IMG/VR virus record: IMGVR_UViG_648276648_000002
Length of the DNA stretch: 30,298 bases
Reading direction: 5' to 3' (one strand)
Source of the DNA: a virus
Taxonomy: Duplodnaviria; Heunggongvirae; Uroviricota; Caudoviricetes
Part shown: positions 1 to 30,298 of the stretch, in pieces
Numbering within the stretch: position 1 is the stretch's first letter
Layout of the letters: the number at the start of each line of letters is the position of its first letter
Notes under the pieces: generated by a model
What the model saw: the letters and a program-made list of their open reading frames with translations, nothing else
Database searches by the model: none
Told to the model about the DNA's origin: nothing
Position numbers and translations under genes: made by a program

Positions 1-264
1 CCGAGCAGGCGCTGGAGTTCTTTAATCTGCTTCATGGCGGCAGCAAGTTCAGAGGCAGGAACAACCTGTTCTCCGGCGGCGACAGCAGTAAGACTTCCTT
101 CCTGGTATTGCTTACGCCAGAGAAATAACTGGCTGGCTGCTACACCATGTTGCCGGGCAACGAGGGAGACCGTCATCCCCGGTTCAAAGCTCTGCTGAAC
201 AATTGCGATCTTTTCCTGTGTGGTACGCCGTCTGCGTTTCTCCGGCCCTAAGACATCAATCATC
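1..264 (-). CDS. insC: IS2 transposase OrfA (InsC), N-terminal 88 codons; partial at window edge
   Basis: Minus-strand ATG at 262-264 translates [87 protein letters not shown], which matches recalled IS2 InsC; in frame to the window edge. Confidence 0.85.
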
Positions 265-354
265 TGTTCTCCAATGACTAGTCTAAAAACTAGTATTAAG
301 ACTATCACTTAAATAAGTGATACTGGTTGTCTGGAGATTCAGGGGGCCAGTCTA
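1..354 (-). mobile_element. IS2: IS2 insertion sequence, partial (left inverted-repeat end inside window; rest runs off the 5' edge)
   Basis: Reverse complement of 264-354 matches the recalled IS2 left end (TAGACTGGCCCCCTGAATCTCCAGACAACCA...ACTAGTCATTGGAGAACAG ATG). Element boundary at 354 abuts integrase codon 112. Confidence 0.85.
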
Positions 355-688
355 TATGCATTCTGCTTACAGCAGAGTAAATCTTTGCCTCCGAGATATC
401 TTTAAGCCTTATACCCTCAAAATGTTCAAGCCAGAACTCAATCCGGCTTTTATCTGAATCGAGAGATTTTTTATCAGCTTTTTCCTCAAGCCATCTTAGG
501 CAGGCCTCTTCAAAAGTGACATCAGGTAAATCCCCTAGCTTTTCTACTCGCCAGAGTTCTGCTTTTCGCTTGTCGTGCAACTCCTGAGCTTGCCGCTTGT
601 CCTTTGTGCCAAGAGATTCCTTAATTCGTTTCCCGCCCGGGAGCGAATACGAGGCATACCATATTTCATTTCTGCGGAAGAGTGACAT
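355..688 (-). pseudogene. int: Phage integrase (tyrosine recombinase, Rac IntR-like) N-terminal 111 codons, truncated by the IS2 insertion
   Basis: ORF 305-688 translates [70 protein letters not shown]..., resembling the recalled IntR N-terminus. The frame passes into IS2 sequence after codon 111, so the listed ORF tail ([14 protein letters not shown]) is IS2-derived. Confidence 0.8.
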
Positions 689-915
689 TTTCTTTCCTCT
701 GTTATGCCATCACCCGCGCTCACCTGGACAGTATGCAGCGGAGACTGAAGCGCCGCAATGCAGGCTTGCCGTGTTGTGAGGTAAGGAGATTTTGGCTTGG
801 TTGGATCTTTACGTGTTGCCTGTAGGCGGCCTGTTCGTATCCAGTTGGTGGCGGTTGGTCTGGATATCTTAAGAAACTGACAGGCCTCATCGAGTGTGAG
901 GCTGTATGGCTCCAT
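544..915 (-). CDS. xis: Excisionase-like protein (Rac XisR/YdaQ-like); unusually long C-terminal extension overlapping int
   Basis: Internal Met of ORF 544-999 gives [57 protein letters not shown]..., an HTH excisionase-type N-terminus. ATG overlaps the upstream stop (TAATG). Where the protein really ends is uncertain. Confidence 0.55.
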
Positions 916-1220
916 TATTTCACCTCTTGCTGTGTCATTGTTGAAAAATGGATACCAGCTCGTTGCTGCCAGACGATCCAACCGAGAGTCATATCCCATG
1001 CCATGTATTCGTTATCGCCGTTTTTTGCTCTCCGACGATCTACTAAGTCACCGAAACGCTTTTCCATGAATAATTCATAGGCTTCGCGTTCATCTGGCTC
1101 TACTTCCAGAGATACGAGTGCGATTTCATAAGCACGGCGCTCAATATCGTCTCGAACATCTAGGCTGCTGATTCGTTCTTTGATTTCTTTAATCAGTCCT
1201 TTATTGGTAAATGTGGTCAT
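915..1220 (-). CDS. Early-left operon protein, 101 aa (YfdT-like, CPS-53/KpLE1 type)
   Basis: ORF 915-1220; acidic helical protein; TAATG start/stop coupling with both neighbours; same size and position as recalled K-12 YfdT. Confidence 0.6.
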   Translation of the reverse strand: MTTFTNKGLIKEIKERISSLDVRDDIERRAYEIALVSLEVEPDEREAYELFMEKRFGDLVDRRRAKNGDNEYMAWDMTLGWIVWQQRAGIHFSTMTQQEVK

Positions 1221-1582
1221 TATGCTCCAGCCTCCGGTGCTTTTGGCATTACTGCCCAGTGAGTGATATTGACGTTTTCAAGGTCCCCGACCTGAAATGT
1301 CCACTGCCATTCTCCGGTTTCTTTTTGTCCCCAGGTGTACCAGAGAGAACACCAGCCAATTAGCCAGCCTTCTCCGTTAGCATCGAATAACAAAACACTT
1401 TCATTTGCTGGTGGCAGTTCAGTTGACACTGGTATTGCTTTGTTTTCCTGTGCTGCACATTTAGCTTCAAGCGCATCGAATTTGCGCACTAGGTATTCAG
1501 CATCTGTTTCATTCACTTTCAGATCTCGCGGTACACATCTCCCACGAAGAAACCCTTCCATTTCGAAAACATTCATGCGCAT
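1220..1582 (-). CDS. Early-left operon protein, 120 aa, Trp-rich (YfdS-like; possibly DUF551)
   Basis: ORF 1220-1582, MRMNVFEMEGFLRGRCVPRDLKV...GWLIGWCSLWYTWGQKETGEWQWTFQ; coupled to both flanking genes. Confidence 0.6.
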   Translation of the reverse strand: MRMNVFEMEGFLRGRCVPRDLKVNETDAEYLVRKFDALEAKCAAQENKAIPVSTELPPANESVLLFDANGEGWLIGWCSLWYTWGQKETGEWQWTFQVGDLENVNITHWAVMPKAPEAGA

Positions 1583-2109
1583 TTGCGTAACTCCGATAAC
1601 TCGTTAAAACGTTCCATAAACATCCCGTAGGCATGGCCCGGTGCCAGTGGAATCACGTTGAACATCTCTGTTGCCGGGATGCCTTCCAGTACAGGCCAGA
1701 AAGAGCCATCATCAAGCCCGAGATCGCGGCGTTCGGTTGCCAGCATGATGAGATCGGCATATTTCACAGGCGTGCTCATAACCGGGGGTAACCCGTATTT
1801 CTCACGGATTACGGCGTCTATTTTTTCTTCCATCCGTTTATAGTCAGGAAGAAGGCGTTTCAGTGGCGCGGGGATGTCCTGACAATAAGCTTCTGTTGCA
1901 TCATGCATTAACGCTTCAAAAGCAAATTCCTGCGGTACCAGCTGGCTGCAAAGCACCGCATGTTGGGCGACGCTGTAGAAGTGTGAAAGATGTCCTGCAA
2001 AGCGACAGATATTTGAAAGGGAAACCGCGATATCGTTAATATCGATGTTGTCTTTATTTATCCTGTCATAATAAAAATGCTTCCCGGAAAAAGTTTTAAT
2101 AAATGACAT
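1573..2109 (-). CDS. yfdR: HD-domain phosphohydrolase, YfdR-like 5'-deoxynucleotidase (178 aa)
   Basis: Motifs H...HD...D (AQHAVLCS ... ALMHDATEAYCQDIP). Start moved to the internal ATG preceded by GGAG (GTGGAGAACAAAATG); size matches recalled YfdR. Confidence 0.75.
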   Translation of the reverse strand: MSFIKTFSGKHFYYDRINKDNIDINDIAVSLSNICRFAGHLSHFYSVAQHAVLCSQLVPQEFAFEALMHDATEAYCQDIPAPLKRLLPDYKRMEEKIDAVIREKYGLPPVMSTPVKYADLIMLATERRDLGLDDGSFWPVLEGIPATEMFNVIPLAPGHAYGMFMERFNELSELRKCA

Positions 2110-2237
2110 TTTGTTCTCCACGTTATATGCGCTGCACCGCGCTGAAATTTGGTTAAAGAAAAACCTCGCCATCAGGCGAATATTGAGTCAATTACGTTTC
2201 CATAAATGCCCCCGCAGGGGCATTTGCAGTAATGAAA

Positions 2238-3062
2238 TCAGGCGGTGAAAGTACCAATAAAGGTTTCTACTTTGCTGTCTTTGAACTTCTCAACAAGCAG
2301 ATCACGAAATTCGTTAGCCATTTCCTCCTGCACTGCTTCCAGCTGAATAATGCGTAGTACCAGTACAGGACGATCGCCAGTGATAATGCTGAGGCGTAAT
2401 TTAAACGGACGTTCTTTCAGACCTTCAAACGGAACGCATTTAAATTCAAATGCCACTGGCATAATGTCTTTGGTCTTCGCTTCGACAGACTCCATCAGGG
2501 AGCGTTTGCCGCTGAAGTCATTATCTTCAAAATCAGCGGTCTGGTTCGCTTCAATTGTGATTTTACGGATCGCCGCAGCCGCTTTGGTTGCCTGAATGGC
2601 GTCACCATTAGCATCAAAGCCCACAAGGTAGTCGGCCCAGTCTTCAATCCATTCTGCCAGTGACTTCTGGGAGTTACGCTCGCCGTTAACAGACAACAGG
2701 GCAGAGAACGGTGCTGTCTTTTTCAGTTTGAGAGTGGCGGTGTTATCTGCGTGACCTGGTTCATCAATAGTACCCAGGTTAAGCACACTGACGGCTCGCA
2801 TATTATCGGCATCGATAAAGCAGCGGGTGCCTTCATCTGCAAGATCTTTAGAATAACGGGTAAAGTCATCGATGCTGGCAGTGGAAAGCGCACCACGGAA
2901 ACGGAAGCGATTTAAATTAAGTTTTTCCAGATCATGAATGCGGAAATTCTCAGGCAATGCCACAGCATCGGCACCAATCTTACTGATAATTTCATTAACA
3001 CCCTGAGCAGAAATAAGGGCATGGATTTGATTAATTGCGGTTGCGTCTAAGTTCTGAGACAT
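2238..3062 (-). CDS. yfdQ: DUF2303/YfdQ-like phage protein (274 aa)
   Basis: ORF 2238-3062; size and operon position match recalled YfdQ of the yfdQRST cluster. Confidence 0.65.
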
Positions 3063-3127
3063 AATAAGTCCTCACTATATAAAGATATTCAGTGATGAGA
3101 TAAATAATCAGTTTATTAAGAACGATA

Positions 3128-3490
3128 TTAACGACCTGCTGCGCGGAGTTTTCCGTCAGGCTCACCGGCAAGAGTCAGTAATTGTCCCTGGTCTTCCTGC
3201 AGAATAGTCAGGCGACCACCGCGATTGACATACATCGGCGTTTCGGTGGTGTCTTCTTCGGAAATTTTCCCGCGGTTAGTCGGGCGAACATATGAGAGTT
3301 TGTGTTTGATTTTCACTCGGTTCTCATCAAACGGTTCGATTTCTAGGTTGAGCGAGACCTTACCTTTGGTTTTCGTGTTCATCACACCGGAAGCGACTTC
3401 ACTGAGAACTGCGCCGATTTTGGTTTCAAATACGCCGCCGTCCAGCTCCCCGATAAATGCCTGCACATCAGTACTGCGTTCGCTAGCCAT
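3128..3490 (-). CDS. Early-left operon protein, 120 aa (YfdP-like?); first gene of the leftward operon
   Basis: Internal ATG preceded by GAGGAG (GAGGAGCAGCAAAATG) within ORF 3128-3808; the upstream 106 codons of that ORF look non-coding. Confidence 0.6.
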   Translation of the reverse strand: MASERSTDVQAFIGELDGGVFETKIGAVLSEVASGVMNTKTKGKVSLNLEIEPFDENRVKIKHKLSYVRPTNRGKISEEDTTETPMYVNRGGRLTILQEDQGQLLTLAGEPDGKLRAAGR

Positions 3491-4481: not shown

Positions 4482-4523
4482 ATCTTGCATTGGTTGGATG
4501 ATACCCAGATTGTTAAAGAGCTA

Positions 4524-4546
4524 AGCGTCCTGTAGGGCGCTTTTTT
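4524..4546 (+). terminator. Rho-independent terminator downstream of the 3960-4481 ORF
   Basis: Hairpin AGCGTCC-TGTA-GGGCGCT followed by TTTTTT, about 43 nt after the stop codon. Confidence 0.7.
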
Positions 4547-4632
4547 GTTGCTAACGAATCATCCTGGACTTTATATGCCCCAGGCGGCTACTTCGTGGGC
4601 GTCCTGCCTGTTCGTTATCTTTGATATAAAAT

Positions 4633-4682: not shown

Positions 4683-4711
4683 TTCGGTGCCTTAGTTAGA
4701 GAAGAGAGGCC

Positions 4712-5338
4712 TTAGAGTTCGTATTGAACTCCTTTGACTACACCAATGATAAGGCAATTACCATTGATAGGGATGTTGGGATACCGAGGATTTAATGGCA
4801 CTAAAAACTTTTGAGGGCCATCGATGACTAATTTTTTTACTGTAGCTTCGTTTGTTCCATCAAGTCGAGCGATGACTATTTTTCCATGACGAGGTTCTGC
4901 ATCTGGATCTACAATCACTGTTGCGCCTTCTGGTATTGTTGGGAGGCCATTAGGGTTAGTCATGGAGTCACCTTTAACCTCTAATGCAAATGAGTTATCA
5001 CCAACCTTTAATGATGTATCTACCCACTTGTCCACTTCACTAAACACTTCTGCTGCCCTGCACTCAGTAAACTGCCCAGCCTGAACCCACGATATTACAG
5101 GAACTCTGCGCATGTTTGTGACGAGTTTGCCTTCAAACTCAGCACCATAAAGAATGTAATCTATTGACGTATTGAAGAACTTCGCTAATTTCGAAAGTGC
5201 CTCCCCACCAGGGGTATTGATGTCTTTCTCCCAGTACCCCACAGCAACGTCGCTTACTCCACAAAATTTACCCAATTCTTTCTGGGACGTTCTGGTAACT
5301 CTTCTCAGAGCTTTTATACGCTGACCAACCGTTTCCAT
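4712..5338 (-). CDS. cI: CI-type prophage repressor (HTH-XRE N-domain, S24 LexA-like peptidase C-domain)
   Basis: 208 aa; HTH QKELGKFCGVSDVAVGYWE; Ala-Gly self-cleavage site (VQAGQF); GDSM serine motif; divergent from cro. Confidence 0.9.
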   Translation of the reverse strand: METVGQRIKALRRVTRTSQKELGKFCGVSDVAVGYWEKDINTPGGEALSKLAKFFNTSIDYILYGAEFEGKLVTNMRRVPVISWVQAGQFTECRAAEVFSEVDKWVDTSLKVGDNSFALEVKGDSMTNPNGLPTIPEGATVIVDPDAEPRHGKIVIARLDGTNEATVKKLVIDGPQKFLVPLNPRYPNIPINGNCLIIGVVKGVQYEL

Positions 5339-5435: not shown

Positions 5436-5636
5436 ATGACAACTGACGATATCGAAAGCTACTTCGGCAGTATTGAGAAAGTTGCTGCTTTTTTCGGCAT
5501 AACAACTGAAGCCGTTTATCAGTGGCGAAACCGTCCGGGCCAGTTAATTCCAAAAGGACGTGCAGCAGAAGCTGCATATAGAACTTGCGGACGGTTGCCA
5601 TTTAAACCTGAGCTTTATGAAAAATCTAATGGATAA
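5436..5636 (+). CDS. cro: Cro-like small HTH regulator (YdaS-like)
   Basis: 66 aa, MTTDDIESYFGSIEKVAAFFGITTEAVYQWRNRPG; GGAGG ribosome-binding site; divergent from cI. Confidence 0.8.
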   Translation: MTTDDIESYFGSIEKVAAFFGITTEAVYQWRNRPGQLIPKGRAAEAAYRTCGRLPFKPELYEKSNG

Positions 5637-10199: not shown

Positions 10200-10200
10200 G

Positions 10201-11213: not shown

Positions 11214-11597
11214 ATGCGTGATATTCAGATGGTTCTTGAGCGTTGGGGAGCGTGGGCGGCTAATAATCATGAAGATGTGACCTGGTCGTCCATTGCCGCC
11301 GGTTTTAAGGGATTAATTCCTTCAAAAGTAAAATCTCGCCCGCAATGTTGTGACGATGACGCTATGATCATTTGCGGGTGCATGGCCCGTCTGAAAAAGA
11401 ACAACAGCGATTTGCACGATTTATTAGTAGATTATTATGTAGTCGGTATGACATTCATGTCACTGGCAGGTAAGCATCGCTGCTCTGATGGTTATATCGG
11501 GAAAAGGTTACAGAAGGCTGAGGGCATAATTGAAGGGATGTTAATGGCATTAGATATCCGGTTAGAGATGGATATCGTTGTTAATAACTCTAATTAA
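11214..11597 (+). CDS. Q: Late antiterminator Q (phage 82/21-type)
   Basis: ATG at 11214 preceded by GGAGA within ORF 11199-11597; position immediately before the late/lysis region. Confidence 0.75.
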
Positions 11598-13456: not shown

Positions 13457-13672
13457 ATGAAATCCATGGATAAGTTAACAACGGGTGTCGCCTATGGCAC
13501 CTCAGCAGGTAGTGCCGGGTACTGGTTTTTACAGCTGCTAGATAAAGTCACGCCCTCACAGTGGGCGGCAATTGGAGTGCTGGGTAGCCTGGTATTTGGC
13601 CTGCTGACGTACCTGACAAACCTTTATTTCAAGATTAAAGAAGATAAGCGTAAGGCTGCGAGAGGTGAATAA
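13457..13672 (+). CDS. S: Holin (phage 21 S21-type pinholin)
   Basis: 71 aa, [55 protein letters not shown]... Confidence 0.9.
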
Positions 13673-14169
13673 TGTCGCCATCATTACGCAAGGCTGTAGC
13701 AGCTGCTATTGGTGGTGGGGCTGTTGCCATAGCGTCTGTGCTCATCACTGGTCCGAGTGGTGACGATGGTCTGGAAGGTGTCAGCTACATACCATATAAA
13801 GATATCGTTGGCGTATGGACTGTATGTCACGGGCATACAGGAAAAGACATCATTCCCGGTAAAACGTATACCGAAGCAGAATGCAAAGCCCTCCTGAATA
13901 AAGACCTTGCCACTGTCGCCAGACAAATTAACCCGTACATCAAAGTCGATATACCGGAAACAACGCGCGGCGCTCTTTACTCGTTCGTCTACAACGTGGG
14001 TGCTGGCAATTTCAGAATATCGACGCTTCTTCGCAAAATAAACCAGGGTGATATCAAAGGCGCATGTGATCAGCTACGTCGCTGGACATATGCTGGCGGT
14101 AAGCAATGGAAAGGTCTCATGACTCGTCGTGAGATTGAGCGTGAAATCTGTTTGTGGGGTCAGCAATGA
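13672..14169 (+). CDS. R: SAR endolysin (phage 21 R-type lysozyme)
   Basis: 165 aa; N-terminal signal-anchor-release helix ([18 protein letters not shown]); start overlaps the holin stop (TAATG). Confidence 0.9.
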
Positions 14170-14627
14170 ACAGAGTAACCGCGATTATCTCCGCTCTGGT
14201 TATCTGCATCATCGTCTGCCTGTCATGGGCTGTTAATCATTACCGTGATAACGCCATTACCTACAAAGCCCAGCGCGACAAAAATGCCAGAGAACTGAAG
14301 CTGGCGAACGCGGCAATTACTGACATGCAGATGCGCCAGCGTGATGTTGCTGCACTGGATGAAAAATACACGAAGGAGTTAGCTAATGCGAAAGCTGAAA
14401 ATGATGCTCTGCGTGATGATGTTGCCGCTGGTCGTCGTCGGTTGCACATCAAAGCAGTCTGTCAGTCAGTGCGTGAAGCCACCACCGCCTCCGGCGTGGA
14501 TAATGCAGCCTCCCCCCGACTGGCAGACACCGCTGAACGGGATTATTTCACCCTCAGAGAGAGGCTGATCACTATGCAAAAACAACTGGAAGGAACCCAG
14601 AAGTATATTAATGAGCAGTGCAGATAG
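14166..14627 (+). CDS. Rz: Spanin, inner-membrane subunit Rz
   Basis: Internal ATG of ORF 14154-14627; N-terminal transmembrane helix followed by coiled-coil. Confidence 0.9.
14386..14568 (+). CDS. Rz1: Spanin, outer-membrane lipoprotein Rz1, embedded in Rz in the +1 frame
   Basis: Lipobox LVVVGC, Pro-rich [15 protein letters not shown]; entirely inside Rz. Confidence 0.85.
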
Positions 14628-15649: not shown

Positions 15650-15894
15650 GTAGATGATAATTATTATCATTTTGCGGGTCCTTTCCGGCGATCCGACAGG
15701 TTACGGGGCGGCGACCTCGCGGGTTTTTGCTATTTATGAAAATTTTCCGGTTTAAGGTGTTTCCGTTCTTCTTCGTCGTAACTTAATGTTTTTATTTAAA
15801 ATAACCCCTGAAAAGAAAGGAAACGACAGGTGCTGAAAACGAACTTTTGGGCCTTTGTCGTTTCCTTTCTCTGTTTTTGGCCGTGGAATGAACA
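15650..15894 (+). promoter_or_regulatory. cos: cos region (cosQ/cosN/cosB) with inverted Nu1-binding R elements
   Basis: Lambda-like GGGCGGCGACCT at 15706-15717; inverted repeats GAAAGGAAACGACAGG / CCTTTGTCGTTTCCTTTC upstream of Nu1. Confidence 0.85.
15706..15717 (+). other. cosN: cosN 12-nt cohesive-end sequence
   Basis: GGGCGGCGACCT, 189 nt upstream of the Nu1 ATG. Confidence 0.85.
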
Positions 15895-16414
15895 ATGGAA
15901 GTCAACAAAAAGCAGCTGGCTGACATTTTCGGTGCGAGTATCCGTACCATTCAGAACTGGCAGGAACAGGGAATGCCCGTTCTGCGAGGCGGTGGCAAGG
16001 GTAATGAGGTGCTTTATGACTCTGCCGCCGTCATAAAATGGTATGCCGAAAGGGATGCTGAAATTGAGAACGAAAAGCTGCGCCGGGAGGTTGAAGAACT
16101 GCGGCAGGCCAGCGAGGCAGATCTCCAGCTAGGGACTATTGAGTACGAACGCCATCGACTTACGCGTGCGCAGGCCGACGCACAGGAACTGAAGAATGCC
16201 AGAGACTCCGCTGAAGTGGTGGAAACCGCATTCTGTACTTTCGTATTGTCGCGGATCGCAGGTGAAATTGCCAGTATTCTCGACGGGCTCCCCCTGTCGG
16301 TGCAGCGGCGTTTTCCGGAACTGGAAAACCGACATGTTGATTTCCTGAAACGGGATATCATCAAAGCCATGAACAAAGCAGCCGCGCTGGATGAACTGAT
16401 ACCGGGGTTGCTGA

Positions 16415-16440
<26 letters not shown>
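15895..16440 (+). CDS. nu1: Terminase small subunit Nu1
   Basis: 181 aa, MEVNKKQLADIFGASIRTIQNWQEQGMPVLRGGGKGNEVLYDSAAVIKWYAERD...; lambda Nu1 from memory. Confidence 0.95.
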
Positions 16441-20121
<3,681 letters not shown>

Positions 20122-20141
<20 letters not shown>

Positions 20142-21441
20142 TCTCCCGCATATTGCCAGCATGGCCTTTAATGAGCCGCTGATGCTTGAACCCGCCTATG
20201 CGCGGGTTTTCTTTTGTGCGCTTGCAGGCCAGCTTGGGATCAGCCGCCTGACGGATGCGGTGTCCGGCGACAGCCTGACTGCCCAGGAGGCACTCGCGAC
20301 GCTGGCATTATCCGGTGATGATGACGGACCACGACAGGCCCGCAGTTATCAGGTCATGAACGGCATCGCCGTGCTGCCGGTGTCCGGCACGCTGGTCAGC
20401 CGGACGCGGGCGCTGCAGCCGTACTCGGGGATGACCGGTTACAACGGCATTATCGCCCGTCTGCAACAGGCTGCCAGCGATCCGATGGTGGACGGCATTC
20501 TGCTCGATATGGACACGCCCGGCGGGATGGTGGCGGGGGCATTTGACTGCGCTGACATCATCGCCCGTGTGCGTGACATAAAACCGGTATGGGCGCTTGC
20601 CAACGACATGAACTGCAGTGCAGGTCAGTTGCTTGCCAGTGCCGCCTCCCGGCGTCTGGTCACGCAGACCGCCCGGACAGGCTCCATCGGCGTCATGATG
20701 GCTCACAGTAATTACGGTGCTGCGCTGGAGAAACAGGGTGTGGAAATCACGCTGATTTACAGCGGCAGCCATAAGGTGGATGGCAACCCCTACAGCCATC
20801 TTCCGGATGACGTCCGGGAGACACTGCAGTCCCGGATGGACGCAACCCGCCAGATGTTTGCGCAGAAGGTGTCGGCATATACCGGCCTGTCCGTGCAGGC
20901 TGTGCTGGATACCGAGGCTGCAGTGTACAGCGGTCAGGAGGCCATTGATGCCGGACTGGCTGATGAACTTGTTAACAGCACCGATGCGATCACCGTCATG
21001 CGTGATGCACTGGATGCACGTAAATCCCGTCTCTCAGGAGGGCGAATGACCAAAGAGACTCAATCAACAACTGTTTCAGCCACTGCTTCGCAGGCTGACG
21101 TTACTGACGTGGTGCCAGCGACGGAGGGCGAGAACGCCAGCGCGGCGCAGCCGGACGTGAACGCGCAGATCACCGCAGCGGTTGCGGCAGAAAACAGCCG
21201 CATTATGGGGATCCTCAACTGTGAGGAGGCTCACGGACGCGAAGAACAGGCACGCGTGCTGGCAGAAACCCCCGGTATGACCGTGAAAACGGCCCGCCGC
21301 ATTCTGGCCGCAGCACCACAGAGTGCACAGGCGCGCAGTGACACTGCGCTGGATCGTCTGATGCAGGGGGCACCGGCACCGCTGGCTGCAGGTAACCCGG
21401 CATCTGATGCCGTTAACGATTTGCTGAACACACCAGTGTAA
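20122..21441 (+). CDS. C: Head maturation protease / minor capsid protein C
   Basis: GTG start inside ORF 19987-21441 (VTAELRNLPHIASMAF...), 439 aa as in lambda gpC. Confidence 0.9.
20836..21441 (+). CDS. nu3: Scaffold protein Nu3 (in-frame internal start within C)
   Basis: In-frame ATG at codon 239 of C (MDATRQMFAQK...), same arrangement as lambda C/Nu3. Confidence 0.75.
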   Translation: MDATRQMFAQKVSAYTGLSVQAVLDTEAAVYSGQEAIDAGLADELVNSTDAITVMRDALDARKSRLSGGRMTKETQSTTVSATASQADVTDVVPATEGENASAAQPDVNAQITAAVAAENSRIMGILNCEEAHGREEQARVLAETPGMTVKTARRILAAAPQSAQARSDTALDRLMQGAPAPLAAGNPASDAVNDLLNTPV

Positions 21442-21450
21442 GGGATGTTT

Positions 21451-21783
21451 ATGACGAGCAAAGAAACCTTTACCCATTACCAGCCGCAGGGCAACAGTGA
21501 CCCGGCTCATACCGCAACCGCGCCCGGCGGATTGAGTGCGAAAGCGCCTGCAATGACCCCGCTGATGCTGGACACCTCCAGCCGTAAGCTGGTTGCGTGG
21601 GATGGCACCACCGACGGTGCTGCCGTTGGCATTCTTGCGGTTGCTGCTGACCAGACCAGCACCACGCTGACGTTCTACAAGTCCGGCACGTTCCGTTATG
21701 AGGATGTGCTCTGGCCGGAGGCTGCCAGCGACGAGACGAAAAAACGGACCGCGTTTGCCGGAACGGCAATCAGCATCGTTTAA
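21451..21783 (+). CDS. D: Capsid decoration protein D
   Basis: [27 protein letters not shown]...; 110 aa. Confidence 0.95.
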
Positions 21784-21838
21784 CCTGACCCTTCATCACT
21801 AAAGGCCGCCTGTGCGGCTTTTTTTACGGGATTTTTTT

Positions 21839-22864
21839 ATGTCGATGTACACAACCGCCCAACTGCTGGCGGCAAATGAGCAGAAATTTAAGTTTGATCC
21901 GCTGTTTCTGCGTCTCTTTTTCCGTGAGAGCTATCCCTTCACCACGGAGAAAGTCTATCTCTCACAAATTCCGGGACTGGTAAACATGGCGCTGTACGTT
22001 TCGCCGATTGTTTCCGGTGAGGTTATCCGTTCCCGTGGCGGCTCCACCTCTGAATTTACGCCGGGATATGTCAAGCCGAAGCATGAAGTGAATCCGCAGA
22101 TGACCCTGCGTCGCCTGCCGGATGAAGATCCGCAGAATCTGGCGGACCCGGCTTACCGCCGCCGTCGCATCATCATGCAGAACATGCGTGACGAAGAGCT
22201 GGCCATTGCTCAGGTCGAAGAGATGCAGGCAGTTTCTGCCGTGCTTAAGGGCAAATACACCATGACCGGTGAAGCCTTCGATCCGGTTGAGGTGGATATG
22301 GGCCGCAGTGAGGAGAATAACATCACGCAGTCCGGCGGCACGGAGTGGAGCAAGCGTGACAAGTCCACGTATGACCCGACCGACGATATCGAAGCCTACG
22401 CGCTGAACGCCAGCGGTGTGGTGAATATCATCGTGTTCGATCCGAAAGGCTGGGCGCTGTTCCGTTCCTTCAAAGCCGTCAAGGAGAAGCTGGATACCCG
22501 TCGTGGCTCTAATTCCGAGCTGGAGACAGCGGTGAAAGACCTGGGCAAAGCGGTGTCCTATAAGGGGATGTATGGCGATGTGGCCATCGTCGTGTATTCC
22601 GGACAGTACGTGGAAAACGGCGTCAAAAAGAACTTCCTGCCGGACAACACGATGGTGCTGGGGAACACTCAGGCACGCGGTCTGCGCACCTATGGCTGCA
22701 TTCAGGATGCGGACGCACAGCGCGAAGGCATTAACGCCTCTGCCCGTTACCCGAAAAACTGGGTGACCACCGGCGATCCGGCGCGTGAGTTCACCATGAT
22801 TCAGTCAGCACCGCTGATGCTGCTGGCTGACCCTGATGAGTTCGTGTCCGTACAACTGGCGTAA
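21839..22864 (+). CDS. E: Major capsid protein E
   Basis: MSMYTTAQLLAANEQKFKFDPLFLRLFFRESYPF...; 341 aa. Confidence 0.95.
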   Translation: MSMYTTAQLLAANEQKFKFDPLFLRLFFRESYPFTTEKVYLSQIPGLVNMALYVSPIVSGEVIRSRGGSTSEFTPGYVKPKHEVNPQMTLRRLPDEDPQNLADPAYRRRRIIMQNMRDEELAIAQVEEMQAVSAVLKGKYTMTGEAFDPVEVDMGRSEENNITQSGGTEWSKRDKSTYDPTDDIEAYALNASGVVNIIVFDPKGWALFRSFKAVKEKLDTRRGSNSELETAVKDLGKAVSYKGMYGDVAIVVYSGQYVENGVKKNFLPDNTMVLGNTQARGLRTYGCIQDADAQREGINASARYPKNWVTTGDPAREFTMIQSAPLMLLADPDEFVSVQLA

Positions 22865-22905
22865 TCATGGCCCTTCGGGGCCATTGTTTCTCTGTGGAGG
22901 AGTCC

Positions 22906-23304
22906 ATGACGAAAGATGAACTGATTGCCCGTCTCCGCTCGCTGGGTGAACAACTGAACCGTGATGTCAGCCTGACGGGGACGAAAGAAGAACTGGCGCT
23001 CCGTGTGGCAGAGCTGGAAGAGGAGCTTGATGACACGGATGAAACTGCCGGTCAGGACACCCCTCTCAGCCGGGAAAATGTGCTGACCGGACATGAAAAT
23101 GAGGTGGGATCAGCGCAGCCGGATACCGTGATTCTGGATACGTCTGAACTGGTCACGGTCGTGGCACTGGTGAAGCTGCATACTGATGCACTTCACGCCA
23201 CGCGGGATGAACCTGTGGCATTTGTGCTGCCGGGAACGGCGTTTCGTGTCTCTGCCGGTGTGGCAGCCGAAATGACAGAGCGCGGCCTGGCCAGAATGCA
23301 ATAA
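22906..23304 (+). CDS. FI: DNA-packaging protein FI
   Basis: MTKDELIARLRSLGEQLNRDVSLTG...; 132 aa. Confidence 0.9.
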   Translation: MTKDELIARLRSLGEQLNRDVSLTGTKEELALRVAELEEELDDTDETAGQDTPLSRENVLTGHENEVGSAQPDTVILDTSELVTVVALVKLHTDALHATRDEPVAFVLPGTAFRVSAGVAAEMTERGLARMQ

Positions 23305-23315
23305 CGGGAGGCGCT

Positions 23316-23669
23316 GTGGCTGATTTCGATAACCTGTTCGATGCTGCCATTGCCTGCGCCGATGAAACGATACGCGGGTACATGGGAACGTCAGCCACCA
23401 TGACATCCGGTGAGCAGTCCGGCGCAGTGATACGTGGTGTTTTTGATGACCCTGAAAATATCAGCTATGCCGGACAGGGCGTGCGCGTTGAAGGCTCCAG
23501 CCCGTCCCTGTTTGTCCGGACTGATGAGGTGCGGCAGCTGCGGCGTGGAGACACGCTGACCATCGGTGAGGAAAATTTCTGGGTAGATCGGGTTTCGCCG
23601 GATGATGGCGGAAGTTGTCATCTCTGGCTTGGACGGGGCGTACCGCCTGCCGTTAACCGTCGCCGCTGA
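23316..23669 (+). CDS. FII: Head completion protein FII
   Basis: 117 aa, MADFDNLFDAAIACADETIRGYMG... Confidence 0.9.
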   Translation: MADFDNLFDAAIACADETIRGYMGTSATMTSGEQSGAVIRGVFDDPENISYAGQGVRVEGSSPSLFVRTDEVRQLRRGDTLTIGEENFWVDRVSPDDGGSCHLWLGRGVPPAVNRRR

Positions 23670-23680
23670 AAGGGGGATGT

Positions 23681-24259
23681 ATGGCCATAAAAGGTCTTGA
23701 GCAGGCCGTTGAAAACCTCAGCCGTATCAGCAAAACGGCGGTGCCTGGTGCCGCCGCAATGGCCATTAACCGCGTTGCTTCATCCGCGATATCGCAGTCG
23801 GCGTCACAGGTTGCCCGTGAGACAAAGGTACGCCGGAAACTGGTAAAGGAAAGGGCCAGGCTGAAAAGGGCCACGGTCAAAAATCCGCAGGCCAGAATCA
23901 AAGTTAACCGGGGGGATTTGCCCGTAATCAAGCTGGGTAATGCGCGGGTTGTCCTTTCGCGCCGCAGGCGTCGTAAAAAGGGGCAGCGTTCATCCCTGAA
24001 AGGTGGCGGCAGCGTGCTTGTGGTGAGTAACCGTCGTATTCCCGGCGCGTTTATTCAGCAACTGAAAAATGGCCGGTGGCATGTCATGCAGCGTGTGGCC
24101 GGGAAAAACCGTTACCCCATTGATGTGGTGAAAATCCCGATGGCGGTGCCGCTGACCACGGCGTTTAAACAAAATATTGAGCGGATACGGCGTGAACGTC
24201 TTCCGAAAGAGCTGGGCTATGCGCTGCAGCATCAACTGAGGATGGTAATAAAGCGATGA
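23681..24259 (+). CDS. Z: Tail completion protein Z
   Basis: 192 aa; lambda gpZ-like. Confidence 0.9.
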   Translation: MAIKGLEQAVENLSRISKTAVPGAAAMAINRVASSAISQSASQVARETKVRRKLVKERARLKRATVKNPQARIKVNRGDLPVIKLGNARVVLSRRRRRKKGQRSSLKGGGSVLVVSNRRIPGAFIQQLKNGRWHVMQRVAGKNRYPIDVVKIPMAVPLTTAFKQNIERIRRERLPKELGYALQHQLRMVIKR

Positions 24260-24651
24260 AACATACTGAACTCCGTGCAGCCGTACTGGATGCACTGGAG
24301 AAGCATGACACCGGGGCGACGTTTTTTGATGGTCGCCCCGCTGTTTTTGATGAGGCGGATTTTCCGGCAGTTGCCGTTTATCTCACCGGCGCTGAATACA
24401 CGGGCGAAGAGCTGGACAGCGATACCTGGCAGGCGGAGCTGCATATCGAAGTTTTCCTGCCTGCTCAGGTGCCGGATTCAGAGCTGGATGCGTGGATGGA
24501 GTCCCGGATTTATCCGGTGATGAGCGATATCCCGGCACTGTCAGATTTGATCACCAGTATGGTGGCCAGCGGCTATGACTACCGGCGCGACGATGATGCG
24601 GGCCTGTGGAGTTCAGCCGATCTGACTTATGTCATTACCTATGAAATGTGA
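24256..24651 (+). CDS. U: Tail terminator protein U
   Basis: 131 aa; ATGA coupling with Z. Confidence 0.9.
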
Positions 24652-24658
24652 GGACGCT

Positions 24659-25399
24659 ATGCCTGTACCAAATCCTACAATGCCGGTGAAAGGTGCCGGG
24701 ACCACCCTGTGGGTTTATAAGGGGAGCGGTGACCCTTATGCGAATCCGCTTTCAGACGTTGACTGGTCGCGTCTGGCAAAAGTTAAAGACCTGACGCCCG
24801 GCGAACTGACCGCTGAGTCCTATGACGACAGCTATCTCGATGATGAAGATGCAGACTGGACTGCGACCGGGCAGGGGCAGAAATCTGCCGGAGATACCAG
24901 CTTCACGCTGGCGTGGATGCCCGGAGAGCAGGGGCAGCAGGCGCTGCTGGCGTGGTTTAATGAAGGCGATACCCGTGCCTATAAAATCCGCTTCCCGAAC
25001 GGCACGGTCGATGTGTTCCGTGGCTGGGTCAGCAGTATCGGTAAGGCGGTGACGGCGAAGGAAGTGATCACCCGCACGGTGAAAGTCACCAATGTGGGAC
25101 GTCCGTCGATGGCAGAAGATCGCAGCACGGTAACAGCGGCAACCGGCATGACCGTGACGCCTGCCAGCACCTCGGTGGTGAAAGGGCAGAGCACCACGCT
25201 GACCGTGGCCTTCCAGCCGGAGGGCGTAACCGACAAGAGCTTTCGTGCGGTGTCTGCGGATAAAACAAAAGCCACCGTGTCGGTCAGTGGTATGACCATC
25301 ACCGTGAACGGCGTTGCTGCAGGCAAGGTCAACATTCCGGTTGTATCCGGTAATGGTGAGTTTGCTGCGGTTGCAGAAATTACCGTCACCGCCAGTTAA
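24659..25399 (+). CDS. V: Major tail tube protein V (with C-terminal Ig-like domain)
   Basis: [22 protein letters not shown]...; internal Met of ORF 24629-25399; 246 aa. Confidence 0.95.
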
Positions 25400-25414
25400 T
25401 CCGGAGAGTCAGCG

Positions 25415-25837
25415 ATGTTCCTGAAAACCGAATCATTTGAACATAACGGTGTGACCGTCACGCTTTCTGAACTGTCAGCCCTGCAGCGCATTGAGCATCT
25501 CGCCCTGATGAAACGGCAGGCAGAACAGGCGGAGTCAGACAGCAACCGGAAGTTTACTGTGGAAGACGCCATCAGAACCGGCGCGTTTCTGGTGGCGATG
25601 TCCCTGTGGCATAACCATCCGCAGAAGACGCAGATGCCGTCCATGAATGAAGCCGTTAAACAGATTGAGCAGGAAGTGCTTACCACCTGGCCCACGGAGG
25701 CAATTTCTCATGCTGAAAACGTGGTGTACCGGCTGTCTGGTATGTATGAGTTTGTGGTGAATAATGCCCCTGAACAGACAGAGGACGCCGGGCCCGCAGA
25801 GCCTGTTTCTGCGGGAAAGTGTTCGACGGTGAGCTGA
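25415..25837 (+). CDS. G: Tail assembly chaperone G
   Basis: 140 aa; ends just after the slippery site. Confidence 0.9.
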   Translation: MFLKTESFEHNGVTVTLSELSALQRIEHLALMKRQAEQAESDSNRKFTVEDAIRTGAFLVAMSLWHNHPQKTQMPSMNEAVKQIEQEVLTTWPTEAISHAENVVYRLSGMYEFVVNNAPEQTEDAGPAEPVSAGKCSTVS

Positions 25838-26253
25838 GTTTTGCCCTGAAACTGGCGCGTGAGATGGGGCGACCCGACTGGCGTGCCATGCTTGCCGGGA
25901 TGTCATCCACGGAGTATGCCGACTGGCACCGCTTTTACAGTACCCATTATTTTCATGATGTTCTGCTGGATATGCACTTTTCCGGGCTGACGTACACCGT
26001 GCTCAGCCTGTTTTTCAGCGATCCGGATATGCATCCGCTGGATTTCAGTCTGCTGAACCGGCGCGAGGCTGACGAAGAGCCTGAAGATGATGTGCTGATG
26101 CAGAAAGCGGCAGGGCTTGCCGGAGGTGTCCGCTTTGGCCCGGACGGGAATGAAGTTATCCCCGCTTCCCCGGATGTGGCGGACATGACGGAGGATGACG
26201 TAATGCTGATGACAGTATCAGAAGGGATCGCAGGAGGAGTCCGGTATGGCTGA
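25415..26253 (+). CDS. GT: Tail assembly chaperone G-T fusion produced by programmed -1 frameshift
   Basis: Slippery heptamer G GGA AAG at 25813-25819 in the G frame; the T frame (ORF 25819-26253) is open in -1. Confidence 0.85.
25813..25819 (+). promoter_or_regulatory. Programmed -1 ribosomal frameshift slippery site (G GGA AAG)
   Basis: Located by codon phase from the G stop codon. Confidence 0.85.
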
Positions 26254-28807
26254 ACCGGTAGGCGATCTGGTCGTTGATTTAAGTCTGGATGCGGCCAGAT
26301 TTGACGAGCAGATGGCCAGAGTCAGGCGTCATTTTTCCGGTACGGAAAGTGATGCGAAAAAAACAGCGGCAGTCGTTGAACAGTCGCTGAGCCGACAGGC
26401 GCTGGCTGCACAGAAAGCGGGGATTTCCGTCGGGCAGTATAAAGCCGCCATGCGTATGCTGCCTGCACAGTTCACCGACGTGGCCACGCAGCTTGCAGGC
26501 GGGCAAAGTCCGTGGCTGATCCTGCTGCAACAGGGGGGGCAGGTGAAGGACTCCTTCGGCGGGATGATCCCCATGTTCAGGGGGCTTGCCGGTGCGATCA
26601 CCCTGCCGATGGTGGGGGCCACCTCGCTGGCGGTGGCGACCGGTGCGCTGGCGTATGCCTGGTATCAGGGCAACTCAACCCTGTCCGATTTCAACAAAAC
26701 GCTGGTCCTTTCCGGCAATCAGGCGGGACTGACGGCAGATCGTATGCTGGTCCTGTCCAGAGCCGGGCAGGCGGCAGGGCTGACGTTTAACCAGACCAGC
26801 GAGTCACTCAGCGCACTGGTTAAGGCGGGGGTAAGCGGTGAGGCTCAGATTGCGTCCATCAGCCAGAGTATGGCGCGTTTCTCCTCTGCATCCGGCGTGG
26901 AGGTGGACAAGGTCGCTGAAGCCTTCGGGAAGCTGACCACAGACCCGACGTCGGGGCTGACGGCGATGGCACGCCAGTTCCATAACGTGACGGCGGAGCA
27001 GATTGCGTATGTTGCTCAGTTGCAGCGTTCCGGCGATGAAGCCGGGGCATTGCAGGCGGCGAACGAGGCCGCAACGAAAGGGTTTGATGACCAGACCCGC
27101 CGCCTGAAAGAGAACATGGGCACGCTGGAGACCTGGGCAGGCAGGACTGCGCGGGCCTTCAAATCCATGTGGGATGCGGTGCTGGATATTGGTCGTCCTG
27201 ATACCGCGCAGGAGATGCTGATTAAGGCAGAGGCTGCGTTTAAGAAAGCAGACGACATCTGGAATCTGCGCAAGGATGATTATTTTGTTAACGATGAAGC
27301 GCGGGCGCGTTACTGGGATGATCGTGAAAAGGCCCGTCTTGCGCTTGAAGCCGCCCGAAAGAAGGCTGAGCAGCAGACTCAACAGGACAAAAATGCGCAG
27401 CAGCAGAGCGATACCGAAGCGTCACGGCTGAAATATACCGAAGAGGCGCAGAAGGCTTACGAACGGCTGCAGACGCCGCTGGAGAAATATACCGCCCGTC
27501 AGGAAGAACTGAACAAGGCACTGAAAGACGGGAAAATCCTGCAGGCGGATTACAACACGCTGATGGCGGCGGCGAAAAAGGATTATGAAGCGACGCTGAA
27601 AAAGCCGAAACAGTCCGGCGTGAAGGTGTCTGCGGGCGATCGTCAGGAAGACAGTGCTCATGCTGCCCTGCTGACGCTTCAGGCAGAACTCCGGACGCTG
27701 GAGAAGCATGCCGGAGCGAATGAGAAAATCAGCCAGCAGCGCCGGGATTTGTGGAAGGCAGAAAGTCAGTTCGCGGTACTGGAGGAGGCGGCACAACGTC
27801 GCCAGCTGTCCGCACAGGAGAAATCCCTGCTGGCGCATAAAGATGAGACGCTGGAGTACAAACGCCAGCTGGCTGCACTTGGCGACAAGGTTACGTATCA
27901 GGAGCGCCTGAACGCGCTGGCGCAGCAGGCGGATAAATTCGCACAGCAGCAACGGGCAAAACGGGCCGCCATTGATGCGAAAAGCCGGGGGCTGACTGAC
28001 CGGCAGGCAGAACGGGAAGCCACGGAACAGCGCCTGAAGGAACAGTATGGCGATAATCCGCTGGCGCTGAATAACGTCATGTCAGAGCAGAAAAAGACCT
28101 GGGCGGCTGAAGACCAGCTTCGCGGGAGCTGGATGGCAGGCCTGAAGTCCGGCTGGAGTGAGTGGGAAGAGAGCGCCATGGACAGTATGTCGCAGGTAAA
28201 AAGTGCAGCCACGCAGACCTTTGATGGTATTGCACAGAATATGGCGGCGATGCTGACCGGCAGTGAGCAGAACTGGCGCAGCTTCACCCGTTCCGTGCTG
28301 TCCATGATGACAGAAATTCTGCTTAAGCAGGCAATGGTGGGGATTGTCGGGAGTATCGGCAGCGCCATTGGCGGGGCTGTTGGTGGCGGCGCATCCGCGT
28401 CAGGCGGTACAGCCATTCAGGCCGCTGCGGCGAAATTCCATTTTGCAACCGGAGGATTTACGGGAACCGGCGGCAAATATGAGCCAGCGGGGATTGTTCA
28501 CCGTGGTGAGTTTGTCTTCACGAAGGAGGCAACCAGCCGGATTGGCATGGGGAATCTTTACCGGCTGATGCGCGGCTATGCCACCGGCGGTTATGTCGGT
28601 ACACCGGGCAGCATGGCGGACAGTCGGTCGCAGGCGTCCGGGACGTTTGAGCAGAATAACCATGTGGTGATTAACAACGACGGCACGAACGGTCAGATAG
28701 GGCCACAGGCGCTGAAGGCTGTTTATGACGTAGCCCGTAAGGCGGCAATGGATGTTGTGACCGGGCAGATGCGTGATGGTGGTCTGTTCTCCGGAGGTGG
28801 ACGATGA
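26246..28807 (+). CDS. H: Tail tape-measure protein H
   Basis: 853 aa; coiled-coil-rich; ATGA coupling to T and M. Confidence 0.95.
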   Translation: MAEPVGDLVVDLSLDAARFDEQMARVRRHFSGTESDAKKTAAVVEQSLSRQALAAQKAGISVGQYKAAMRMLPAQFTDVATQLAGGQSPWLILLQQGGQVKDSFGGMIPMFRGLAGAITLPMVGATSLAVATGALAYAWYQGNSTLSDFNKTLVLSGNQAGLTADRMLVLSRAGQAAGLTFNQTSESLSALVKAGVSGEAQIASISQSMARFSSASGVEVDKVAEAFGKLTTDPTSGLTAMARQFHNVTAEQIAYVAQLQRSGDEAGALQAANEAATKGFDDQTRRLKENMGTLETWAGRTARAFKSMWDAVLDIGRPDTAQEMLIKAEAAFKKADDIWNLRKDDYFVNDEARARYWDDREKARLALEAARKKAEQQTQQDKNAQQQSDTEASRLKYTEEAQKAYERLQTPLEKYTARQEELNKALKDGKILQADYNTLMAAAKKDYEATLKKPKQSGVKVSAGDRQEDSAHAALLTLQAELRTLEKHAGANEKISQQRRDLWKAESQFAVLEEAAQRRQLSAQEKSLLAHKDETLEYKRQLAALGDKVTYQERLNALAQQADKFAQQQRAKRAAIDAKSRGLTDRQAEREATEQRLKEQYGDNPLALNNVMSEQKKTWAAEDQLRGSWMAGLKSGWSEWEESAMDSMSQVKSAATQTFDGIAQNMAAMLTGSEQNWRSFTRSVLSMMTEILLKQAMVGIVGSIGSAIGGAVGGGASASGGTAIQAAAAKFHFATGGFTGTGGKYEPAGIVHRGEFVFTKEATSRIGMGNLYRLMRGYATGGYVGTPGSMADSRSQASGTFEQNNHVVINNDGTNGQIGPQALKAVYDVARKAAMDVVTGQMRDGGLFSGGGR

Positions 28808-29133
28808 AAACCTTCCGCTGGAAAGTGAAACCCGGTATGGATGTGGCTTCGGCCCCTTCTGTAAGAAAGGTGCGCTTTGGTGATGGCTGTTCCCAGCGAG
28901 CGTCTGCCGGGCTGAATGCCAACCTGAAAACGTACAGCGTGACGCTTTCTGTCCCCCGTGAGGAGGCCACGGTACTGGAGTCGTTTCTGGAAGAGCACGG
29001 GGGCTGGAAAGCCTTTCTGTGGACGCCGCCTTATGAGTGGCGGCAGATAAAGGTGACCTGCGCAAAATGGTCGTCGCGGGTCAGTATGCTGCGTGTTGAG
29101 TTCAGCGCAGAGTTTGAACAGGTGGTGAACTGA
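28804..29133 (+). CDS. M: Minor tail protein M
   Basis: 109 aa, MKTFRWKVKPGMDVASAPSVRKVRFGDGCSQRA... Confidence 0.9.
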   Translation: MKTFRWKVKPGMDVASAPSVRKVRFGDGCSQRASAGLNANLKTYSVTLSVPREEATVLESFLEEHGGWKAFLWTPPYEWRQIKVTCAKWSSRVSMLRVEFSAEFEQVVN

Positions 29134-29831
29134 TGCAGGATATCCGGCAGGAAACACTGAATGAATGCACCCGTGCGGAGCAGTCGGCCAGCGTGGTGCT
29201 CTGGGAAATCGACCTGACAGAGGTCGGTGGAGAACGTTATTTTTTCTGTAATGAGCAGAACGAAAAAGGTGAGCCGGTCACCTGGCAGGGGCGACAGTAT
29301 CAGCCGTATCCCATTCAGGGGAGTGGTTTTGAACTGAATGGCAAAGGCACCAGTACGCGCCCCACGCTGACGGTTTCTAACCTGTACGGTATGGTCACCG
29401 GGATGGCGGAAGATATGCAGAGTCTGGTCGGCGGAACGGTGGTCCGGCGTAAGGTTTACGCCCGTTTTCTGGATGCGGTGAACTTCGTCAACGGAAACAG
29501 TGACGCCGATCCGGAGCAGGAGGTGATCAGCCGTTGGCGCATTGAGCAGTGCAGCGAACTGAGCGCGGTGAGTGCCTCTTTTGTACTGTCCACGCCGACG
29601 GAAACGGACGGCGCTGTTTTTCCGGGACGTATCATGCTGGCCAACACCTGCACCTGGACCTATCGCGGCGATGAGTGCGGTTATCACGGTCCGGCTGTCG
29701 CGGATGAATATGACCAGCCAACGTCCGATATCACGAAGGATAAATGCAGCAAATGCCTGAGCGGTTGTAAGTTCCGCAATAACGTCGGCAACTTTGGCGG
29801 CTTCCTTTCCATTAACAAACTTTCGCAGTAA
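29133..29831 (+). CDS. L: Minor tail protein L
   Basis: 232 aa, MQDIRQETLNECTRAEQSASVVLWEIDLTEVGGERYFFCNEQ... Confidence 0.9.
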   Translation: MQDIRQETLNECTRAEQSASVVLWEIDLTEVGGERYFFCNEQNEKGEPVTWQGRQYQPYPIQGSGFELNGKGTSTRPTLTVSNLYGMVTGMAEDMQSLVGGTVVRRKVYARFLDAVNFVNGNSDADPEQEVISRWRIEQCSELSAVSASFVLSTPTETDGAVFPGRIMLANTCTWTYRGDECGYHGPAVADEYDQPTSDITKDKCSKCLSGCKFRNNVGNFGGFLSINKLSQ

Positions 29832-29836
29832 ATCCC

Positions 29837-30298
29837 ATGACACAGGCAGAATCAGCGATTCTGGCGCACGCCCGGCGATGTGCGCCAGCGGAGTCGTGCG
29901 GCTTCGTGGTAAGCACGCCGGAGGGGGAAAGATATTTCCCCTGCGTGAATATCTCCGGTGAGCCGGAGGCGTATTTCCGTATGTCGCCGGAAGACTGGCT
30001 GCAGGCAGAAATGCAGGGTGAGATTGTGGCGCTGGTCCACAGCCACCCCGGTGGTCTGCCCTGGCTGAGTGAGGCCGACCGGCGGCTGCAGGTGCAGAGT
30101 GATTTGCCGTGGTGGCTGGTCTGCCGGGGGACGATTCATAAGTTCCGCTGTGTGCCGCATCTCACCGGGCGGCGCTTTGAGCACGGGGTGACGGACTGTT
30201 ACACGCTGTTCCGGGATGCTTATCATCTGGCGGGGATTGAGATGCCGGATTTTCATCGCGAGGATGACTGGTGGCGTCACGGTCAGAATCTCTATCTG
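29837..30298 (+). CDS. K: Tail assembly protein K (JAB/MPN plus NlpC/P60), N-terminal 154 codons; truncated by the window end
   Basis: ATG at 29837; MTQAESAILAHARRCAPAESCGFVVSTPEGERYF... with HSHPGG motif; open to the last base. Confidence 0.85.
   Translation, partial: MTQAESAILAHARRCAPAESCGFVVSTPEGERYFPCVNISGEPEAYFRMSPEDWLQAEMQGEIVALVHSHPGGLPWLSEADRRLQVQSDLPWWLVCRGTIHKFRCVPHLTGRRFEHGVTDCYTLFRDAYHLAGIEMPDFHREDDWWRHGQNLYL

Follow-up and report, generated by a model that had tools for sequence, protein, structure and literature searches.

We find that the window, that is, the whole 30,298-nucleotide stretch analysed here (IMG/VR record IMGVR_UViG_648276648_000002), covers the leftmost 30 kb of a lambdoid prophage similar to PhiR29_1 in Escherichia coli M718, located at the argU (DLP12) site. 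By its sequence on both sides of the break, the integrase gene intD is interrupted between codons 111 and 112 by one IS2 element, as a simple insertion with no rearrangement. In our assessment, it is probable that this single insertion has grounded the prophage at argU and that the prophage is otherwise intact, remaining SOS-inducible but locked. Both ends of the window are assembly breaks of the M718 draft, with position 1 lying in IS2 and position 30298 in tail gene K. The features that carry the argument are listed in Table 1.

Table 1. Features of the M718 prophage window, with coordinates, strand and the matches on which each assignment is based
Feature	Position	Strand	Evidence
IS2 left 354 bp (IS3 family)	1..354	-	99.4% identity (2 mismatches) with bases 1-354 of the IS2 copy
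IS2 orfA, first 87 codons	1..263	-	ATG at 263, exits window leftward; Pfam HTH_Tnp_1, E 1.3e-19
Target-site duplication copy 1, 5 bp, GCATA on minus strand	355..359	-	copy 2 after IS2 right end in source scaffolds
intD 5' fragment, codons 1-111	356..688	-	100% identity to K-12 IntD residues 1-111
xis, P22-type excisionase, 123 aa	544..915	-	overlaps int 5' end; untouched by IS2; Pfam HTH_17
cI repressor, 208 aa, LexA-like	4712..5338	-	HTH_3 and Peptidase_S24, profile positions 1-115 of 116
cro	5436..5636	+	Pfam P22_Cro, E 4.4e-11; 100% identical to 12A homologue
O-like replication initiator, 313 aa	6576..7517	+	phrog_391 full-length, E 7.8e-135; 99.4% identical to PhiR29_1 O
Q antiterminator (QuuD type)	11214..11597	+	Pfam Phage_antitermQ, E 5.7e-54; full-length matches to 12A and PhiR29_1
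Lysis cassette: holin S, lysozyme R, Rz	13457..14627	+	full-length gapless vs PhiR29_1 S/R/Rz and 12A essD/rrrD/rzpD
cosN (GGGCGGCGACCT)	15706..15717	+	sole exact match in window; 178 bp upstream of Nu1 gene
Lambda-type packaging, head and tail genes, Nu1 through L and first 154 codons of K	15895..30298	+	full-length gapless vs 12A and PhiR29_1

The integrase frame starts with the ATG at 688 on the minus strand and continues for 111 codons down to base 356, followed by one extra base (355). The left inverted repeat of IS2 begins at base 354 and proceeds leftward as TAGACTGGCCCCCTGAATCTCC.... An earlier note on this DNA had described a 111-codon integrase frame entering the IS2 terminal repeat with OrfA reading away from it, and its coordinates proved right to the base. 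orfA is transcribed in the direction of int, and thus it reads away from the junction. The frame that is now read (305..688, minus strand) joins the 111 Int codons to 16 IS2-derived codons before reaching a stop, for a total of 127 aa. To identify the element, the 1331-bp IS2 copy in strain GPEC1054 was used as the reference; this copy has ATTGG on both flanks as its own 5-bp duplication. The right 471 bp of our element, present on scaffold L002, were 100% identical to the reference, and its imperfect terminal inverted repeats were IRL, TAGACTGGCCCC..., and IRR, ...GGGGCAAATCCA. Downstream of the gap in IS2, the gene corresponding to part of orfB encoded the rve and rve_3 transposase domains in both L002 and L003; the frameshift region that joins orfA and orfB falls inside this gap. 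By its near-identity to the reference, its terminal repeats, the combination of an HTH-bearing orfA with an rve-bearing orfB, and the 5-bp duplication, the element is assigned to IS2.

Past the right end of IS2, the remainder of int resumes as GCATAACAGAAAG.... The two junctions between int and IS2 read ...AGAATGCATA followed by TAGACTGG... at one end and ...GGGGCAAATCCA followed by GCATAACAGAAAG... at the other. The insertion is laid out as ...AGAATGCATA, IS2 and GCATAACAG..., in which GCATA is duplicated, the 5 bp being typical of IS2. Deleting IS2 and one duplicate in silico gave an uninterrupted 387-aa ORF with 99.5% identity to K-12 IntD (99.6% at the DNA level). At the far side of int, its stop codon (L003 12094) lies 15 bp before a tRNA-Arg(UCU) gene (anticodon tct, L003 12110-12186), which places attL here. 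The chromosome beyond attL contains fimZ, sfmF, and an IS1-interrupted sfmH, and folD also belongs to this left flank. The IS1 copy is itself split by an assembly gap and lies in the sfm adhesin gene about 2 kb past attL (L002 14775-15339; L003 14228-14800). The earlier note had proposed extending the sequence leftward in search of the second end of IS2, the duplicated target, attL and the missing 3' portion of int; all of these, including GCATA and 276 codons of 3' int, were located in the source scaffolds. The presence of all four marks the event as a simple insertion.

A more complicated history was weighed against this reading. Recombination between two IS2 copies, by inversion or deletion, could have moved the 3' part of int, or the junction could be an artefact of assembly. 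The interior of IS2, expected to be about 506 bp for a 1331-bp element, is filled with N in either scaffold version, and in L002 and L003 this tract starts exactly at window position 1, inside IS2. The two halves of int are joined on the strength of the scaffolding together with the matching GCATA duplication, and OU349840.1 shares its break points with the Broad scaffold and hence is not independent of it. However, the gap estimated by Broad (647 N) is close to the expected length, GCATA stands at both ends of IS2, and removal of the element restores the int frame exactly, whereas an exchange between separate IS2 copies should give flanks that differ. The contig with the junction is also present in three further assemblies. 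A rearranged or artefactual junction is exceedingly improbable on this evidence. The IS2::int junction is neither an assembly chimera nor a chance arrangement, and the simple insertion is retained below.

The occurrence of this allele was followed through public assemblies. Two scaffolds were 100% identical to window 1-10688, namely GL884110.1 (GCA_000176575.2) and OU349840.1, the latter named as an E. coli M718 genome assembly (PMC9233328). These share every contig break point, so they do not count as independent evidence and are probably one data set that was re-scaffolded. The IS2::int junction was also found in three further, separately assembled genomes, and an exact-protein look-up with the 127-aa fusion ORF returned five public contigs only. 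Among 5,426 complete RefSeq E. coli genomes, searched with a 1.3-kb probe and an 81-bp junction probe, none had the junction. Five hits with 100% coverage (H1-H5) were considered as the same junction and rejected, as their IS2 lies in the neighbouring yfdS and not in int. Contig L005 (98.9% identity) was considered as a second independent allele. All of its mismatches fall at the contig end within IS2 (window 146-205), so it was assigned to the same allele. IS hits in and around prophages of this type are frequent, with sfm, ompT and yfdS as examples: GPEC1054 has its IS2 in yfdS (L001), and ompT, at the right end of the related 12A prophage, is broken by another IS2 copy (L031 5636-7925).

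The interrupted gene encodes a DLP12/IntD-type (P22-like) tyrosine integrase at argU, an assignment that follows from the 99.5% identity of the reconstructed 387 aa to K-12 IntD. With strain 12A IntD as the tblastn query, residues 1-111 mapped to 688..356, and in relatives of the prophage the integrase is annotated as intD and located at argU. The earlier label of a Rac-type integrase had to be replaced, since the fragment matches DLP12 IntD of K-12 without a difference, IntR gave no significant match to it, and the site is argU, not ttcA. When IntR of Rac was compared with the N-terminal 111 residues, no significant match was obtained (E = 1.2). IntR and the integrase here share the tyrosine-recombinase class of E. 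coli lambdoid prophages. Nevertheless, IntR is only 22% identical to the reconstructed Int over 242 columns, all in the catalytic domain, and Rac integrates at ttcA while the prophage here is at argU. The fragment upstream of IS2 comprises the arm-binding part and some of the core-binding part, and the catalytic domain is absent from it. In the reconstructed protein, the catalytic Pfam Phage_integrase domain spans residues 184-355 and lies wholly downstream of the IS2 break. The first in-frame ATG of the 276-codon 3' piece is Met152, which opens a 236-aa ORF. Its product would have no arm-binding domain and only a minor part of the core-binding domain. Thus intD, although a member of the IntD family by its residues, is classed as a pseudogene, as no uninterrupted gene for the catalytic domain is left.

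Beside the interrupted int, the excisionase gene was found to be full length. Against phrog_2907 ('excisionase'), Xis matched profile positions 2-117 of 117 (E 1.1e-45), and it is conserved along its length (at least 80% covered) in 161 phage records, including epsilon34, in which it is annotated 'excisionase'. With its full-length ORF overlapping int, its HTH_17 domain and its conservation in phages, the product is a P22-type excisionase by homology. PGAP labels the gene 'incomplete' or as a partial HTH in S88 and 12A, and we considered it as a pseudogene on that account; the full-length profile match and the conservation in isolated phages led us to reject this. The label 'incomplete HTH domain protein' recurs in relatives (L026 12496-12561 and L027 1999-2061). 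P22/DLP12-type xis, which overlaps int with its 3' part, thus seems to be mis-annotated systematically.

The immunity region was also complete. Residues A87-G88, S125 and K168 of cI are invariant with lambda cI and LexA (A84-G85, S119, K156). With an HTH, a full S24 domain, the Ala-Gly site and the Ser/Lys dyad, cI is, by these motifs, a LexA-like self-cleaving repressor. The proteins of the operator/cI/cro region are 100% identical to those of strain 12A. According to the earlier note, cI keeps LexA-like self-cleavage motifs, and xis, cI, cro and the replication, lysis and structural genes all look intact. Both statements were borne out, the former by the complete S24 domain and the residues aligned to LexA and the latter by full-length, gapless matches to PhiR29_1 and 12A.

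Several further genes and elements were noted in the early regions. A 173-aa ORF (window 3960-4481, plus strand) matches phrog_1244, a family of unknown function, and has two CxxC pairs. It lies between cI and the early-left genes, where lambda has rexAB, and runs counter to the pL operon; it is only 59% identical to its 12A counterpart (non-allelic), in contrast to 99-100% for the flanking genes. This ORF may be an accessory or exclusion gene undergoing diversification. The early-left (pL) operon has an ORF-poor stretch (3495-3960), upstream of yfdP and downstream of ORF 3960-4481, which contains a full-length but sub-threshold match to STnc100 (RF02076) at window 3625-3848 on the minus strand (42.4 bits against a gathering threshold of 47, E 1.6e-7). 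The predicted fold of this stretch is far more stable than that of shuffled sequence (z = -6.2), and the stretch overlaps a hypothetical gene that is frameshifted in 12A (PGAP) and in the window. Over the whole window, Rfam at gathering thresholds and a tRNA scan returned nothing. The nin region encodes a PerC-family regulator (YfdN-like; phrog_1324 'transcriptional activator') at window 7514-8008 on the plus strand. In EPEC and EHEC, PerC/Pch homologues are known to activate the LEE island.

Gene content and order in the remainder of the window were those of a lambda-like phage. The structural genes, which also carry Pfam families, are arranged as Nu1, A, W, B, C/Nu3, D, E, FI, FII, Z, U, V, G, T, H, M, L and K, the last being cut by the window end. 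From int-xis through early-left, cI-cro-cII-O, nin, Q, lysis, cos and Nu1-A-W-B-C-D-E to the tail genes, the order is that of a lambda-like cos siphovirus, to judge from the gene-by-gene matches to PhiR29_1 and 12A. The lysis cassette has a lysogenic-conversion gene on either side: the gene for a porin of the OmpD/NmpC type (365 aa, window 11790-12884, minus strand) lies between Q and the holin gene, and bor, for an iss-like serum resistance lipoprotein (window 14662-14952, minus strand), follows Rz. Between bor and the cos region, 288 bp at window 15007-15294 replace about 1.28 kb that bears ybcV (DUF1398) and ybcW in PhiR29_1 and 12A; only about 110 bp of this replacement is related (83% identity).

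To extend the comparison, the prophage was aligned with isolated phages and with prophages in complete genomes. The closest isolated phage was PhiR29_1 (PV340556.1, 46.3 kb), which covered 95% of window 355-25000 at 96% identity. All 37 of the proteins compared matched at full length without gaps, and identity for essential genes was mostly 88-100% (FI 88.6%, others above 90%). The closest prophages in complete genomes were those of FDAARGOS_1059 and O111:H2 strain 12A. The latter, in which intD at argU is uninterrupted, was chosen for comparison. Full-length, gapless tblastn counterparts in the window were obtained for 43 of the 46 CDS compared, and the remainder comprised intD (stopping at residue 111), K (at the window end), and ybcV and ybcW (missing). 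At its right end, this prophage carries a Pin-type serine invertase, accessory genes and ompT, with no second tyrosine integrase; it is a relative and not the source.

The prophage was followed rightward through contigs, by way of the tape-measure protein, to 8.5 kb past the window end. Contig L019 is contiguous and 100% identical to all the source pieces, and its assembly also has the IS2::int junction. Aligned to L019, the neighbouring pieces at the K 'gap' share 97 bp and those at the J 'gap' 490 bp, so no sequence is hidden there, and K, I, J and lom are intact in L019. In the same contig, the side tail fibre gene (stf) has a TCA to TGA change at codon 137 (L019 19521, some 9.5 kb beyond the right edge of the window). 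The M718 scaffolds have a gap at the site of stf codon 137, and L020 has an intact stf of 1131 aa. The nonsense codon in L019 means that a second lesion, a non-essential one, may already exist in the IS2-bearing lineage. stf is dispensable in lambda.

These data bear on whether IS2 had any consequence. The prophage could have been inert already, either because its regulation was faulty or because something beyond the window, such as attR or the tail fibre region, was defective. The stf nonsense codon in an otherwise identical contig, the roughly 1 kb with ybcV and ybcW missing at 15007-15294, and the extent of the sequence seen, which reaches the start of tfa with the right end (attR) beyond it, are in keeping with such a defect. 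However, stf, ybcV and ybcW are accessory, and every essential gene seen for early functions, lysis and morphogenesis has its full length, most being 88-100% identical to those of an isolated, propagated phage. The identity of the operator, cI and cro proteins to those of 12A also speaks against a regulatory defect. A prophage that was inert before IS2 arrived is therefore very unlikely, and an otherwise functional prophage that IS2 has locked into the chromosome is the preferred reading.

The insertion probably locks the prophage in the chromosome. IS2 parts the arm-binding N-terminus of Int from the whole catalytic domain and, in view of the domain organisation of lambda-family integrases and of lambda genetics, functional Int would not be made. 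If functional Int is not made, recombination between attL and attR should be beyond the prophage's own means, despite the intact xis. Since the window's remaining modules are undamaged and cI retains its cleavage residues, SOS induction should derepress pL and pR and start replication in situ. The expected course would begin with RecA-stimulated cleavage of cI and derepression of pL and pR. Replication in situ would then co-amplify the flanking chromosome ('regional replication'), and Q-dependent late genes would be expressed, leading to cell lysis. With a single chromosomal cos site, infectious particles would be few or none. By analogy and with good precedent, we reasonably infer that the prophage cannot excise and that it would kill its host on SOS induction. 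The element would then be a prophage that was 'grounded' not long ago and has only begun to decay, and it would be a liability on induction; it should still confer immunity, and it carries accessory genes (porin, bor and the PerC-family regulator).

Mobility could nonetheless be regained from elsewhere. An IntD-like integrase supplied in trans, by another prophage or by a superinfecting PhiR29- or DLP12-type phage, could act together with the resident Xis, or int could be repaired by recombination with such a phage. The intact xis and attL would allow this, and suitable donors are widespread: IntD-type phages are common, with at least 80% of this prophage present in 257 complete E. coli genomes, and several isolated phages have the same xis-int module. 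In O157 Sakai, complementation between prophages has been documented for other functions (PMC2669165). On the other hand, the single argU site for IntD-type elements is already occupied, which makes a second resident copy unlikely, and the int-disrupted prophages of Sakai were not circularised in a strain with 18 prophages (PMC2669165). The 127-aa fragment could, from the domain structure of lambda Int, compete for arm sites. Rescue by trans-complementation or marker rescue is consequently unlikely, given the occupied argU and the unrescued int-defective prophages of Sakai, and we keep to the view that the prophage is locked.

It is also conceivable that the IS2-locked prophage is being maintained and is not simply a prophage that has yet to decay, serving an altruistic-lysis function or one like lateral transduction. 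The same allele in several isolates and the lack of a further essential lesion in about 39 kb form the basis for this reading, which we hold to be very unlikely. If it were maintained, the prophage could serve on induction as a stationary origin from which the adjacent chromosome is amplified, and it might package that DNA rightward from its single cos site toward ompT, envY and nfrA, and the 127-aa arm-binding fragment of Int could block rescue by related integrases. We continue with recent grounding by IS2 as the favoured explanation.

It is well known that insertion sequences disrupt prophage integrases, and equally well known how lambdoid prophages behave when they are defective in excision; this is an ordinary route to defectiveness. 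The specific IS2::intD allele appears undescribed in the literature searched, and it adds no new principle. Its value lies in showing cleanly, in a natural isolate, how prophage 'grounding' starts, with one IS insertion in int while the other genes seen are intact, and in offering a possible test case for the effect of an excision-defective, inducible cos prophage on its host and the flanking DNA. The annotation of such elements can also be corrected: the integrase is IntD (DLP12 type) and not Rac, the xis that PGAP calls 'partial' is full length, and the prophage is to be listed as excision-defective, not intact. The importance beyond annotation is small.

Among known systems, PhiR29_1 and its relatives (PhiR49_1, Kati, ev243 and 2G7b) have the same genome organisation and the same xis. 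Unlike the prophage here, they are isolated phages with an intact int; the hosts on record for PhiR29-like phages are ECOR13, E. coli C and K-12. PhiR29_1 also differs in its cI region (window 4617-5649 was unaligned) and in having ybcV and ybcW. DLP12 of K-12 shares the integrase and the tRNA-Arg(UCU) site beside fimZ, and its Q, porin, lysis genes and nohD are related. Its state is the reverse of that found here. DLP12 has an intact intD, but its xis is a pseudogene and its immunity and replication regions and all of its structural genes are lost, whereas in our prophage everything seen is intact save int.

The expected behaviour has a parallel in lambda. Lambda lysogens that are defective in excision (int or xis) replicate in situ on induction, co-amplify the flanking DNA and die with a very low phage yield. 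Those 'locked-in' lysogens are laboratory mutants, while the case here is a natural IS2 insertion in an IntD/P22-type module, for which the same behaviour would be expected by analogy. 'Grounded' prophages that arise through mutation of the recombinase have been reviewed (PMC6379469). Natural counterparts are found in O157 Sakai, where the int-disrupted lambdoid prophages Sp3, Sp11 and Sp12 yielded no circular forms, replication or packaging, and where 'regional replication' of the chromosomal DNA around induced or unexcised prophages was seen (PMC2669165). Sp3, Sp11 and Sp12 are likewise disrupted in int and predicted to be non-excisable, but their integrases and attachment sites differ from those here. 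The Sakai prophages also carry several further defects, including disrupted repressors in Sp11 and Sp12, which are thus not clean controls for the loss of int alone. In the M718 prophage, by comparison, int is the sole essential lesion seen.
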